Positions 12,541 through 34,836 of a DNA stretch of 64,000 bases are shown piece after piece. Numbering within the stretch: the first letter of the stretch is position 1; each line of letters starts with the position of its first letter. Where the stretch lies: contig JAZQES010000075.1 of the NCBI GenBank assembly GCA_045539115.1, positions 46,015 to 110,014 on the forward strand, in the 5' to 3' direction. The translations under genes were made by a program, and so were the position numbers. The DNA is from Candidatus Cryptobacteroides sp. GTDB lineage: Bacteria; Bacteroidota; Bacteroidia; Bacteroidales; UBA932. The notes under the pieces were generated by a model, which worked only from the letters and a program-made list of their open reading frames with translations, ran no database searches and had not been told where the DNA came from.

Positions 12541-12637
12541 CAGGGTAAGAACGCGTCATCTTTCTAATTGTTTGATTATTAATGATGTGCGACTTTATCA
12601 TGTTCTTACTCTGCTGAAAGTTTGACAGGGTAAGAAC
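12541..12637. repeat. Three copies of a 12-bp motif CAG(G/A)GTAAGAAC (direct, inverted, direct)
   Basis: CAGGGTAAGAAC at 12541-12552 and 12626-12637; GTTCTTACTCTG (reverse complement CAGAGTAAGAAC) at 12602-12613. Confidence 0.75.
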
Positions 12638-30742: not shown

Positions 30743-33268
30743 ATGGCTGCAAGAAAGAAAACTGATAAAGGAAACAAGAAGAAAGAGAAGCGTCAGGGCT
30801 TCTCATTCTTTTCTGATATGGATCCCGACACCAAGTCTATACTTTTGAAAGGTCTCGGTATCCTTGTGGCGGTGTTTGCTGTGTTTACAGCGGTGTCTGC
30901 CTTGTCATACCTGTTCACATGGAAGGCCGATCAAAGCCTTATGTCCCATCCTGACATGCTTGACAAGGGTGTGGAGGTGGCCAATGCCGGAGGCAAGGCC
31001 GGTTATTGCTGGGCTCATTTCCTTGTATGCCGTTTCTTGGGCCTCGGAAGTCTCCCGTTCATATTTCTCCTTTGTGCTGCCGCTTACAGGCTTTTCTTCT
31101 GGAACAGGAGCATCGGGCTTCTCAGGATGACTTTTGTAACGGTGAGCGGAGCGTTCGTGTCCTCGCTCATCCTTGCTTATGTGTCGATGCTCTTCACATC
31201 CGACACATTCTTCGGAGGAGGTCTGGGAGGTGATGCCGGTCACGGTGTTGTACGATGGATGACAAATCTTACAGGAGACATAGTCACAGCATTGGTGATC
31301 GCTGTCCTGGCCGTTGCATGGCTTCTTCTTGCAAGCGGGAAATTCGCTCATTGGCTTGCTTCTGCCGGAATGACTGAAAAGGAGCCGGTTCAGGAAGAGA
31401 ATGTACCTTCCGAGTTGAATCCTGTCGAACTGGATCCTGCGGAAGTCGCTGCTGCCGAGCCAGTTGACGAGGAGTTCGCCGAAGTCCACGATGAGGACGG
31501 ACTGCAATATGAAACGATAGATCCTGATTTCAATCCGTTCCCGGTCTTCCCTGACGTGGATTCTTTCGGAGAAGACTCTGCCGAATTGGAACCTGCCGAG
31601 GCAGAACCTGTCGAGGTTGTGACTCCGGTCGCTGAGGCCGGTCCTGGAGAGGATATGGAAGTGATTATCAACTATGACGCTCAGGAAAAGGTTACTGAGG
31701 AACTAGAACGTATCGACAACAGGGCTGAACTCGAGAAATATGAGTTTCCGTCAATAGATCTTCTGGACGATTATGCCGATGGACAGCATATTGTTTCAAA
31801 GGAGGAACTGGAAATCAACAACAACAGAATACGTGCAACCTTGATGAACTACAAGATCGAGGTTATGCAGGTCACTGCCGTGGTAGGTCCAACCGTGACT
31901 CTTTACAAGGTGGTTCCTGCCCCTGGCGTAAAGGTGTCGGCTATCGAGAATCTTCACAGGGAGATCGGTATGTCGCTGGGAGCCAAGGGAGTACGTGTCG
32001 TTGTGCTTCCGGACTGTGTGGGAATCGAGGTGGCCAACAGGGAGCCTTCTATCGTCCCTCTCAAAAAGACGTTGAATGATGATTCGTTCCGCAATACAAA
32101 GCATGAACTTCCGATAGCGATAGGTTATACTATCACGAAGAAGGTCAAGACCTTCGACCTTGCTTCGGCTCCGCATCTTCTTGTTGCCGGTGCCACCCAG
32201 CAGGGTAAGTCAGTCGGTCTTAACGTGATCATCTCGTCGCTTCTTTATGCGAAGCATCCGTCTGAACTCAAATTTGTCTTCATCGACCCGAAGATGGTGG
32301 AGTTCACCGCATACAATGCTCTCCTGAAACATTATCTTGCAGTAATGCCTATGGCGGCGAGTGAGGAAGACGAGCGTGAGCATGCTATCGTGAAGGACGC
32401 GAAACATGCAGAACAGATCCTCAACTCCCTGTGTGTGGAGATGGATGAGAGATATAAACTTCTTGCCCTTGCGGGAGTGAACAACCTCAAACTTTACAAC
32501 GAGAAGTACAAGGACAGATATCTTCTTCCTACCGAGGGACATAAATATCTCCCTTATCTGGTTGTCGTGATAGATGAGTATGCCGACCTTACCATGGCAG
32601 GCGGTGCCGGTCCAGAGGCGAGAAAGTCCGCAAAGAACATCGAGGCGGCCATCGTACGTCTTGCACAGAAGGGCAGGGCGGCCGGAATTCATGTGATCAT
32701 AGCGACCCAGCGTCCTTCCGTGAATGTGATCACCGGTCTCATCAAGACCAACTTCCCGACCAGAATCGCGTTCCGAGTAGTCTCGAGAGTGGATTCCGCC
32801 ACTATCCTTGATACCAACGGAGCGGAAAACCTGATCGGACGAGGCGATATGCTATATTATGCAGGAGTCGAGATGGAACGTGTCCAGTGCGCTCTTGTCA
32901 GCATGGCGGAAATCAACAGGATCACGGATTTCATCGGCAGTCAGACCGGTTACAAGAAGTGTTACAACACGCCTTATTATCTTCCAGTACCTGAATCGCA
33001 GGATGGTGAGACAAGTGGCGGCAATATAGACATGCAGAACATCGATCCTTCATTTGAGGAGGCTGCACGTATGATCGTAACCACTCAGAAAGGTTCTACT
33101 TCTGACCTCCAGAGGCGTCTCGGCATGGGTTATGCAAGAGCAGGACGTGTCATGGACCAGTTGGAAGGTGCCGGAATCGTCGGTCCTCAGGAAGGCTCGA
33201 AGCCGCGTCAGGTCCTTGTCACCACTTTTGAAGAACTTGATGAAATTCTCTCTCACTTTATCCGCTAA
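30743..33268 (+). CDS. ftsK: DNA translocase FtsK/SpoIIIE
   Basis: N-terminal TM region, acidic linker, PHLLVAGATQQGKS, IDPKMVE, VVIDEYADL, ATQRPS, GAENLIGRGDML and gamma domain LQRRLGMGYARAGR. Confidence 0.96.
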   Translation: MAARKKTDKGNKKKEKRQGFSFFSDMDPDTKSILLKGLGILVAVFAVFTAVSALSYLFTWKADQSLMSHPDMLDKGVEVANAGGKAGYCWAHFLVCRFLGLGSLPFIFLLCAAAYRLFFWNRSIGLLRMTFVTVSGAFVSSLILAYVSMLFTSDTFFGGGLGGDAGHGVVRWMTNLTGDIVTALVIAVLAVAWLLLASGKFAHWLASAGMTEKEPVQEENVPSELNPVELDPAEVAAAEPVDEEFAEVHDEDGLQYETIDPDFNPFPVFPDVDSFGEDSAELEPAEAEPVEVVTPVAEAGPGEDMEVIINYDAQEKVTEELERIDNRAELEKYEFPSIDLLDDYADGQHIVSKEELEINNNRIRATLMNYKIEVMQVTAVVGPTVTLYKVVPAPGVKVSAIENLHREIGMSLGAKGVRVVVLPDCVGIEVANREPSIVPLKKTLNDDSFRNTKHELPIAIGYTITKKVKTFDLASAPHLLVAGATQQGKSVGLNVIISSLLYAKHPSELKFVFIDPKMVEFTAYNALLKHYLAVMPMAASEEDEREHAIVKDAKHAEQILNSLCVEMDERYKLLALAGVNNLKLYNEKYKDRYLLPTEGHKYLPYLVVVIDEYADLTMAGGAGPEARKSAKNIEAAIVRLAQKGRAAGIHVIIATQRPSVNVITGLIKTNFPTRIAFRVVSRVDSATILDTNGAENLIGRGDMLYYAGVEMERVQCALVSMAEINRITDFIGSQTGYKKCYNTPYYLPVPESQDGETSGGNIDMQNIDPSFEEAARMIVTTQKGSTSDLQRRLGMGYARAGRVMDQLEGAGIVGPQEGSKPRQVLVTTFEELDEILSHFIR

Positions 33269-33269
33269 T

Positions 33270-33914
33270 ATGAAGATTGTCTTTAAATACGCCTTTACAG
33301 GACTCCTGAGCCTTATGGTCTCTTTGACTCATGCTCAGGATACTGCATTGCTTGACCGGCTGTATGATGACTTTTCATCTAAATTGATTACTTTGAAGTT
33401 CAGTTATGTCATTGAAATGGCAACATCTGACATGACAGGTGAAGGCACCGTATCTTTTCAGGATAGTCAGTATCGTCTCTCTGCTAATGGCCTGGAAGTG
33501 TATTGCGACGGCAAGGACATATGGATGGTTGATTCTAATGCAAAGGAAGTGATAGTCGAACCTGTGACCGAAGACGCTTCGGCATTCATGCAGAATCCGG
33601 CCATGCTTTTTACTGGTCTCAAAGACAATTTTGAGGTGGTGAAAGTGTCGGAAGGAGGGCATGTCCGCGAGCCCGGGGTCAAGGATGTCGTGTTTACGCT
33701 CAGGCCTACGGTCGAGTGCGGGATAGAGGAGTGTGACATTCAGATCAGGAAGAACGGCGATCTTTATTATGGCACTTTCATCATGTCTGATGATCAGGTA
33801 GATATAGTCCGTGTCCTGGTCAATTCGATAACAAGATCAGAAAAAAGGAGCATAGATCATTTCCGTCCGGATCAGTCTTTCGATTCATCCTGGATAGTCA
33901 CTGATTTGAGATAA
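33270..33914 (+). CDS. LolA-like outer-membrane lipoprotein carrier
   Basis: Signal peptide from MKIVFKYAF (33270, 1 nt after the ftsK stop); GTVSFQ..QYRL, YCDGKDIW.VD..AKEVIV and NPAMLF motifs; ftsK-lolA linkage is widespread. Confidence 0.8.
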   Translation: MKIVFKYAFTGLLSLMVSLTHAQDTALLDRLYDDFSSKLITLKFSYVIEMATSDMTGEGTVSFQDSQYRLSANGLEVYCDGKDIWMVDSNAKEVIVEPVTEDASAFMQNPAMLFTGLKDNFEVVKVSEGGHVREPGVKDVVFTLRPTVECGIEECDIQIRKNGDLYYGTFIMSDDQVDIVRVLVNSITRSEKRSIDHFRPDQSFDSSWIVTDLR

Positions 33915-34018
33915 CCCAACGCCAGCAGTTTGTGTATGCGACATGCCACCCCCGGCTAGGGGGTGCCTCCCGCATGGGAGGCGGGGGTCGCAGCAACAAA
34001 CTGCTGGCGTTGGGTTAT
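33911..34018. mobile_element. 108-bp MITE/REP-like element with perfect 23-bp terminal inverted repeats and two internal hairpins
   Basis: ATAACCCAACGCCAGCAGTTTGT (33911-33933) pairs with ACAAACTGCTGGCGTTGGGTTAT (33996-34018). Inner stems: TGCGAC/GTCGCA, CACCCCC/GGGGGTG and GCCTCCC/GGGAGGC. The structure is certain; mobility is inferred. Confidence 0.5.
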
Positions 34019-34029
34019 ATGATATCAGG

Positions 34030-34836
34030 TTACCAACTTCCGCCGGCTCCGCCACCTCCGAAGGAACCTCCTCCGAATCCGCCGAAACCTCCACCGAAGC
34101 CACCGCTGAATCCGCCTCCGAATCCTCCTGATGAACCCCATGAACTTCCTGGTCTTCTGATGATTACAGGTCCGGTGGTGAACACGTCGTCGAAACTGCT
34201 TCCGCCTCCCTTGCCGCCTTTGCCATTGTTTTCGTTTGCCACTGCGGCAATGATGATAAGTACAAAGATAAGGGCGATGAAGAATATCGCTACGTAGATA
34301 AGGTCGCCGTCATCGTCGCCCTCACGCAATTCTGAAATCTCACCGCTGGCAAGTTTCATCAATGTCTCACATGCAGCCTCAGCACCTCCATAATAGTCGT
34401 TTTCCATGAAATGAGGTATCATCTCGTTATTGATGATCCTCTTGGCGTAGGCGTCAGGAACCGCACCTTCGAGTCCGTATCCTGTCGCGATGAACACCTG
34501 GCCAGGCGTGCTGTCCTTAGGCTTGATCAGCACCACTATTCCGTTGTCGAACTTTTCCGATCCTACGCCCCATTCAAGTCCTATTCTGGTGGCATAATCT
34601 GCAGGTTCGTAGCCTTCAAGGTATTTTGTAGTAATGACGGCAATCTGATTGGAGGTGGAGTCGTCGAACGCTACCAGAATGCTTTCCAGCGTATTTTCCT
34701 GGTCTGTAGTGAATATATCGGCCAGGTCGTTGACAAGACGTGGCGGCTCCGGTCTCTGAGGCAGTGCATATGCAGTCATGCACATGAAGCATAAGACAAG
34801 AAACGAAATATGGTGTCTTATTGTAATGAGTTTCAT
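34030..34836 (-). CDS. TPM-domain membrane protein (YgcG-like) with Gly-rich cytoplasmic tail
   Basis: Signal peptide, RLVNDLADIF, WGVG...DNGIVVLI, IATGYGLEGAVPDA, one TM segment, and a GGFGGG...GGAGGSW tail. Confidence 0.92.
   Translation of the reverse strand: MKLITIRHHISFLVLCFMCMTAYALPQRPEPPRLVNDLADIFTTDQENTLESILVAFDDSTSNQIAVITTKYLEGYEPADYATRIGLEWGVGSEKFDNGIVVLIKPKDSTPGQVFIATGYGLEGAVPDAYAKRIINNEMIPHFMENDYYGGAEAACETLMKLASGEISELREGDDDGDLIYVAIFFIALIFVLIIIAAVANENNGKGGKGGGSSFDDVFTTGPVIIRRPGSSWGSSGGFGGGFSGGFGGGFGGFGGGSFGGGGAGGSW

Follow-up and report, generated by a model that had tools for sequence, protein, structure and literature searches.

What is the 108-bp palindrome that lies between the convergent ends of a LolA-like gene and a TPM-domain gene in a genome of Candidatus Cryptobacteroides: a terminator, a structured RNA, or mobile DNA? 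The question arises from a stretch of 64,000 nucleotides (contig JAZQES010000075.1 of assembly GCA_045539115.1, positions 46,015 to 110,014 of the forward strand), hereafter the window, in which positions 33911-34018 fold into a Y shape. An initial annotation, made from the letters alone, proposed an undescribed MITE (miniature inverted-repeat transposable element) or structured RNA family. We conclude, with a probability of roughly 0.6, that this sequence is a copy of an undescribed, lineage-restricted, non-coding family of interspersed palindromic DNA (here termed the Y-element) that resembles repetitive extragenic palindromic sequences (REP), MITEs and Rickettsia palindromic elements (RPE), and that is conserved at its centre rather than at its ends.

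Read letter by letter, the palindrome has all the parts first attributed to it, and RNA folding returned the same arrangement. The plus strand carries the core in its GACATGCC... orientation. An outer stem, P1, joins a 23-nt 5' arm (ATAACCCAACGCCAGCAGTTTGT, 33911-33933) to its perfect complement (33996-34018), and encloses a 3x3 internal loop with GTA on the 5' side (33934-33936; family consensus G-N-A) and GCA on the 3' side (33993-33995; consensus G-G-A). A 6-bp stem, P2, formed by TGC-GAC (33937-33942) and GTC-GCA (33987-33992), then leads to two GC-rich hairpins: hairpin 1, ACCCCC GGCTA GGGGGT (33948-33964), and hairpin 2, GCCTCCC GCAT GGGAGGC (33965-33982). The Y shape predicted for 33901-34028 has an energy of -88.2 kcal/mol, compared with a mean of -43.8 for shuffled sequences (z = -11.5), and none of 200 shuffles folded as well. 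The window contains no second long inverted repeat of this type.

A BLAST search of the window's own metagenome-assembled genome (MAG; designated G000, 2.73 Mb in 87 contigs) returned about 25 good matches to the element, nearly all of which span only query positions ~30-80. This 50-nt centre, GACATGCC-hairpin 1-hairpin 2-GGCGGGGGTC, corresponds in the window to 33940-33989 (GAC-ATGCC-hairpin 1-hairpin 2-GGCGGGGG-TC). Aligned on the core, every copy in the genome reads GACATGCC-ACCCCC-GGCYA-GGGGGT-GCC-(hairpin 2)-GGC-GGGGG-TC, and a 27-mer of the core is exact in 19 of the 25 copies found by BLAST and altered by one to three changes in the other six. Around each core lies a near-perfect inverted repeat of 17-25 bp that is not the same from one copy to the next; the Y-shaped fold is predicted for all, with total lengths clustering at 96-112 nt. 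Comparison of ends and flanks across the family disclosed no terminal or flank motif common to the copies. The 23-bp arms, initially taken for terminal inverted repeats (TIRs), are thus specific to this copy rather than ends of a family, and the ACCC...GGGT termini are private to it, because the stem differs in every copy.

Conservation of the fold was borne out on an alignment of 54 sequences (A1), in which 82% of cells are paired and 28 of 41 pairs are altered on both sides. For covariation the score was 0.393, compared with 0.146 in shuffles (none of 500 scored as high), and the signal collapses once the register is slid. Clean covariation is found in the outer 3 bp of P2, on both its strands (pairs 24-26/78-80, changed on both sides in 12-32 of the 54 sequences), and in hairpin 2, which varies in sequence and length among copies with pairing kept. 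Hairpin 1, a 2-bp P3 and the GAC/GTC of P2 are invariant, in part an effect of ascertainment, since copies from public collections were retrieved by exact patterns (the 27-mer); in an orthologue less biased in this respect, at the C40 site in the relative G047, hairpin 1 has diverged. The identity of the family sits in this ~50-nt GC-rich three-way junction with its near-constant hairpin 1.

Junctions in related genomes established that the stem, as well as the core, is inserted DNA. At the window locus the LolA-like gene (33132-33914, plus strand), which has orthologues in relatives, ends in a TAA (33912-33914) within the left arm, as first described; the convergent TPM-domain gene (34030-34836, minus strand), encoding a Gly-rich C-terminus, has its stop at 34030-34032, 11 nt past the right arm. 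The element is absent as a block from the orthologous junctions of three relatives, which have no hairpin: the genes are separated by lolA-TAA, 8 nt and TTA-TPM in G048, by TAG, 2 nt and TTA in G049, and by TAA and 20 nt in G047. Because these junctions are empty, the whole 108 bp must be regarded as inserted. The same locus is occupied in G051 by a Y-element with an unrelated stem and in G050 by a different long-stem, GC-core element. When the joined flanks of 11 copies from G000 were compared with three relatives, base-resolution empty sites were found at C10, C24, C21:5785 and C4, with boundaries good to within a few bases only, given flank identities of 70-90%; at C24, C21 and C4 the entire stem falls within the inserted block. 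An insert in murB, described below, is missing in the congeners G013 and G008. The empty orthologous sites are thus borne out both at the window locus and elsewhere. Three siblings (C5:178654, C8:18341 and C5:~142000) have the same stem and unrelated flanks, and the window copy (C75) has only the inner 17 bp of its stem in common with one sibling, C41:16441, again between unrelated flanks; since siblings at unrelated sites have stems in common, the moving unit includes the stem. The 108 bp, stem included, is inserted DNA, occasionally duplicated to unrelated sites together with its stem.

Within the genus the family is patchy, with about 25 copies in G000, 12 in G013 (having a longer hairpin 2), one in G008, and none in about 20 other species; six relatives (G047-G052) carry 7-26 copies apiece. 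A search for the exact 27-nt 5' core brought up more than 111 MAG stretches. Roughly 35 species-level MAGs from the guts of ruminants and other herbivores contributed them, under the labels Ca. Cryptobacteroides, RGIG/RUG Bacteroidales, 'Muribaculaceae' (two), Bacteroidaceae (one) and 'Clostridia' (one bin, probably a contamination). A metagenome scan with hairpin 1 alone yielded more than 120 further contigs, and the public total of over 230 MAG and metagenome stretches is a lower bound. A covariance model (R1), which scores the window copy at 111.5 bits, found no match in 300 other genomes across the order Bacteroidales (208 genera), nor was any family match found in the viral contigs, phages and plasmids searched. 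Rfam 15 gave no relevant match for the window copy at E <= 10 and none at E <= 0.1 for 11 loci spanning core types A-D (see below), and in the literature searched neither the core sequence nor Bacteroidales REP or MITE elements of such kind are described. With its copies in G000, in relatives and in public collections, the multi-copy family suspected at the outset is confirmed, and no variant matches an Rfam 15 family.

These variants form a superfamily in which the same hairpin 1, its hallmark, and a 3' GGGGG(T/C)C recur in at least four core layouts, each set in a copy-specific long stem: type A (GACAT...), type B (GGCATTTT...AGGGGCCCAC...), type C (CGACCT...CGGGGCCCTTTAGGG...) and type D (GGTCGT...). 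A G-quadruplex reading of the G-runs would suit types B and C, not type A, and was set aside. One GC-rich host lineage (Bacteroidia) has GC-rich stems and tandem arrays. Among its loci (L226 on metagenome contig Ga0256404_1033120, 2700-3100; L043, L083, L115, L137 and L141 of RUG14513 type), copies resemble one another in their stems, have a long hairpin 2 and share ~55 nt of sequence upstream, and the tandem arrays are spaced at about 178 nt. A further subfamily, in G000 (C5:141975-142114 and C25:12541-12625), has a ~37-nt extra hairpin (CCCCTGAAAATC-TGTC-GATTTTTGGGG plus tail) nested in the hairpin-1 loop; its two copies differ in outer stem, so the nested form has itself spread. Several MAG and metagenome contigs (e.g., L311, L043 and L104) start or stop inside an element; short-read assemblies of these MAGs are broken by the repeat.

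Many sites carry a Y-element in more than one species, and long-term vertical inheritance of copies is evident. Where the flanking coding DNA is 80-90% identical, stems are ~65% identical and still paired, and cores are 85-100% identical (in part an ascertainment effect of exact 27-mer retrieval), their changes sitting in hairpin 2. Arms change in compensated fashion, by multiple bases (TTTT/AAAA to TGGT/ACCA) or by an indel present in both arms (GGGC versus GGAAC at an orthologous site). At C10 the palindrome has grown into its flank, because the native gene end TATTTTAA pairs with inserted TTAAAATA, an 8-bp inverted copy of the native flank; C75 and C41 have their inner stem in common and differ over the outer 7 bp, which is paired in each. 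Of 49 orthologous occupied pairs, 16 differ in the direction of the core inside the same stem, among them L042/L086 and L093/L111, whose flanks are 97-99% identical; the inverted segment takes in P2.

Arm homogenisation, arm expansion and spacer inversion are reported outcomes of template switching between the arms of inverted repeats (PMC8604942, PMC13100816, PMC8794818), and no dedicated enzyme is needed for the arm changes, extensions and flips, since all three are such published outcomes. After insertion, ordinary template switching during replication would keep the arms complementary, extend them into the flanks and flip the asymmetric centre, a process that would account for a stem that is different yet near-perfect in every copy and for the mixed orientation of the core. 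The folded centre would, as single-stranded DNA, be recognised by a trans-acting protein, and the long stem may be required for structure only, at a length that is roughly fixed (element 96-112 nt).

A survey of the context of 133 copies placed 50 between convergent genes, 29 between tandem genes (19 antisense and 10 sense to the genes), about 20 inside open reading frames (ORFs) and none between divergent genes; for the remainder one neighbouring gene was unresolved. The element is tolerated almost only just past stop codons or in frame within genes, and its extragenic copies, like REPs, keep to gene 3' ends and avoid promoter regions. The clearest in-frame case is murB of G000, whose ORF runs through copy C20:11223 for 36 codons, antisense to the core. 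The product has 426 aa, versus 335-350 aa in most congeners, and the MurB proteins of G013 and G008 are 82% identical and have no insert. At two other loci (L101 and L108) a Y-element lies at the same murB codon with diverged stems, and insert 1 of murB is a second, decayed Y-element copy.

A second kind of small in-frame insert adjoins the Y-element in MurB (G000 C20:10730-14561, which holds murB and metG). It is translated as 'CHSE(R/Q)S..EESL' or 'CHF(E/D)..EKSL', recurs in G000 MetG and in the MurB proteins of G002 and G042, and has a DNA sequence (..GTCATTCCGAGCGAAGCGAGGAATCTC..) resembling a tandem-G.A variant of hairpin 2. Insertions in MurB concentrate at two hot spots, past residue ~77 and past residue ~240, with different elements in different species.

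Several properties bear on whether the fold acts as DNA or as RNA. Among tandem and intragenic copies, the core is antisense to transcription in 32 and sense in 17; its orientation has no bias with respect to GC skew or replication direction. Stem mismatches on the GACATGCC strand comprise 21 G.T versus 7 A.C under strict criteria (p = 0.013), and 43 versus 15 in a looser parse. An apparent excess of purine-purine mismatches in stems was traced to the internal loop. Loops of hairpin 2 are frequently closed by G...A (GNA in 22 of 40 triloops, GNNA in 21 of 46 tetraloops). Short loops of this kind suit stable DNA mini-hairpins better than RNA tetraloops. On this modest evidence, a single-stranded DNA fold of one strand is favoured over a functional RNA.

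We weighed this reading against four alternatives. The structured RNA family envisaged initially (a small RNA gene, ribozyme or protein-binding RNA on the GACAUGCC strand, with helices under RNA selection) would account for the very strong covariation around an invariant junction, the purine-rich internal loop, the tandem G.A motifs of some hairpin-2 variants and a tolerance of G.U above A.C on one stem strand. It is nonetheless improbable: the folded strand is more often antisense than sense to the neighbouring or host gene, the core flips at the same site between close relatives, unique flanks rule out a conserved promoter, copies lie within ORFs, no variant matches Rfam 15, and GNRA makes up only 5 of the 21 GNNA tetraloops of hairpin 2. 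The stem covariation itself is not evidence of RNA function, because template switching alone yields compensatory changes. We give somewhat more room, as a minority view, to a cis element selected by the host: a terminator or insulator, an mRNA 3'-end stabiliser or a site for a chromosomal protein, as has been proposed for REP and bacterial interspersed mosaic elements (BIME). Mobility would then be only the manner of arrival, and the proposal overlaps with the family of mobile palindromes that we prefer. The strict gene 3'-end location speaks for it, with none of the 133 copies between divergent genes, as does the layout of a bidirectional intrinsic terminator (A-tract, stem, T-tract) in 26 of 99 copies, the reverse layout being seen in 5 of 99; this asymmetry is no artefact of orientation, because orientation cannot create it. 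At the C41 site the place of the G000 element is taken in G047 and G051 by ordinary terminator hairpins, and cores are kept at orthologous sites where stems have drifted to near-random similarity. Some copies may plausibly serve, secondarily, as bidirectional terminators or insulators that separate convergent genes, judged from their sequence. T-tracts are, however, absent from most other copies and, as the initial annotation had noticed, from the window copy; there TATGATATCAGG follows the stem. In addition, relatives at five empty sites make do with gene spacings of 0-20 nt and have no hairpin, in-frame copies occur in murB and other ORFs, in which a terminator would do harm, the family is missing from most species of the genus, and a terminator has no need of a sequence-invariant three-way junction.

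The two remaining alternatives concern what moves, and how. Plain hairpins with stems of 14-26 bp number ~120 in G000, many with A/T tracts, and might be host terminators into whose loops a mobile ~60-nt core alone had entered; a quarter of elements do show terminator-like A...T ends, and nested insertion exists, in the form of the second small hairpin within the hairpin-1 loop of two copies. Six sites, however, have an empty orthologue (window, C10, C24, C21, C4 and murB); relatives are without any hairpin at each of them, and siblings at unrelated sites have stems in common, so that insertion of the core only, contradicted at every site tested, is quite unlikely. Least credible of all is a conventional TIR-type MITE moved by a DDE transposase of IS630-like or IS982-like type, with duplication of TA, which the initial annotation had derived from the ends TA-ACCC...GGGT-TA. 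These ends belong to the window copy alone; the arms differ in every copy, with neither a terminal motif nor a TA flank in common, so the comparison with insertion sequence (IS) ends is without basis. No consistent duplication of TA or of any other target occurs even among recent siblings, and near about 250 loci we found no transposase or IS carrying the core or matching its ends. Candidate matches of part of the core to the ends of a larger element proved to be decayed copies in ORFs or the nested-hairpin subfamily, and the idea that arms are captured, spacer-like sequence was dropped as they match only their own partner arm or siblings. What stands of the initial proposal is an element that is small, non-coding, multi-copy and inserted, with empty orthologous sites, and its wider suggestion of a non-autonomous element that may double as a terminator is reasonable; the assignment to the IS-type MITEs, with TIRs and target duplication, falls with the absence of conserved ends.

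The family of centre-conserved mobile palindromes that we prefer has its own difficulties, and the following observations weigh against it. No consistent target-site duplication accompanies either sibling copies or pairs of empty and occupied sites, and no terminus is conserved across copies, so that spread by means other than transposition is conceivable. Matches to Y1_Tnp/RAYT (REP-associated tyrosine transposase; PF01797) occur in 20 of 31 genomes of the genus irrespective of the element and near none of the copies in G000 and G013, and no protein family recurs near ~130 loci. A search for alleles within the species found none: there was no exact protein record and no metagenome match to a 23-mer from the 3' end of the LolA-like gene, and the best metagenome contig, 95.7% identical, terminates inside an element. 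Conservation of the core at old orthologous sites, itself partly an ascertainment effect, exceeds expectation for a purely selfish, inert insertion and hints at host-level constraint. Finally, the strand asymmetry of mismatches is modest, and within the core G.T and A.C stand at 9 to 6, which is not significant.

A more specific mode of movement may be entertained tentatively: a class of mobile DNA defined by structure, in which a protein would recognise, on folded single-stranded DNA, the invariant three-way junction and act at a roughly fixed distance along the stem. The junction would consist of hairpin 1 with GACATGCC / GGGGGTC, the action would take place about two helical turns down the stem, and any paired sequence could serve as 'ends'. 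On this view a novel recombinase or nuclease of herbivore-gut Bacteroidales would have core types A-D as its set of substrates, and the flipping of the core might be part of the enzyme reaction rather than passive template switching.

Comparison with known systems places the Y-element near several and inside none. Like REPs and their REPIN-RAYT systems, it is a short, extragenic, multi-copy and lineage-specific palindrome, found mostly at gene 3' ends or between convergent genes, whose hairpin arms evolve by compensatory change, whose single-stranded fold is presumed to be strand-specific, and which has neither DDE-type TIRs nor target duplications. Unlike it, REPs are imperfect palindromes of 20-40 nt conserved throughout, and REPINs are two inverted REPs; the Y-element has arms unique to each copy, conserves only its forked centre, lacks a conserved palindrome with a 5' GTAG-type motif, and neither flanks nor correlates with a RAYT gene, whereas other hairpin families of G000 do flank Y1_Tnp. 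With MITEs (Correia/NEMIS, RUP, ERIC and Nezha) it has in common the ~100-bp, non-coding, multi-copy insert with long hairpins, near genes and co-transcribable; MITEs are defined by conserved TIRs matching a parent IS and by target duplications, neither of which it has. RPE, reportedly described by Ogata and colleagues in 2000, are said to be palindromic repeats of ~100-150 bp found between genes and in frame within protein genes, to which they add peptide. The open frame of Y-elements in murB and several other ORFs is analogous, without implying membership: sequence and host phylum are unrelated, and RPE align over their full length, the Y-element only at its centre. We know of no description of centre flipping in RPE.

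Similarities of shape extend further. The inverted terminal repeats (ITRs) of parvoviruses and adeno-associated virus (AAV) likewise carry two small GC-rich hairpins on top of a long stem, and the asymmetric cap occurs in flip and flop forms, but they are ends of linear viral genomes, cut at a defined stem site by the HUH nuclease Rep; Y-elements are chromosomal and internal, with no matches in viral contigs and phages, and the resemblance is structural only. The GC clusters or double-hairpin elements of fungal mitochondria are small GC-rich two-hairpin modules in an AT-richer genome, sometimes inside genes; as dispersed modules they recall the Y-element, but they are organellar and have no long copy-specific outer stem. 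Integron attC sites are recognised as folded single strands, by structure above sequence and at variable total length, with conserved outer R/L boxes and a variable centre, the opposite of the Y-element. R''/R' boxes are not conserved at Y-element ends, other copies do not share the RYYYAAC/GTTRRRY-like ends seen in the window copy, and no integron integrase, cassette array or recurrent neighbour was found near Y-elements. The Y-element works like REP, MITE and RPE and yet has none of the conserved ends, target duplication or RAYT partner that define such systems.

Small palindromic repeats of these kinds shape bacterial genomes, and the Y-family reverses their usual pattern in that the centre is fixed and the arms are free. 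It offers one natural substrate on which arm homogenisation, spacer inversion and arm extension can be followed at base resolution in many species, and it enters essential genes such as murB in frame. It also sounds a caution for RNA-motif discovery, as processes at the DNA level can give a long hairpin strong 'covariation' in the absence of any RNA function, and has a practical side, as the elements break MAG assemblies and inflate ORF predictions in uncultured Bacteroidales of the rumen and hindgut. A dedicated protein, should one recognise the forked core, would count as a new DNA enzyme with specificity for structure.

Other hairpin elements were encountered in these genomes. The one occupying the window locus in G050 (L186, G050:C25) encloses a GC-rich centre of unrelated sequence between 23-bp arms (GTGGGTACGGTAAGGTTGGATGG / CCATCCAACCTTACCGTACCCAC) and has a plain terminator hairpin after it, which suggests several families of elements built from a long stem and a GC core. 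Two further hairpin-repeat families of G000 flank RAYT-like Y1_Tnp matches (C12:63788-65074 and C18:42638-43147) and look like classical REP/RAYT pairs: that at C12:64176 reads ..ATGCCTGCTG-loop-CAGCAGGCAT.. and that at C18:42980 reads GTTCTTACCCTG..CAGGGTAAGAAC. The word CAGGGTAAGAAC, related to the latter family, occurs also in the window at ~12541-12626, where the repeat is probably a member of that family. The TPM-domain protein beside the window copy has a long Gly-rich C-terminal tail (34030-34150, minus strand) that is kept in relatives, whose TPM genes finish with the same CCAGCTKCCGCC sequence.

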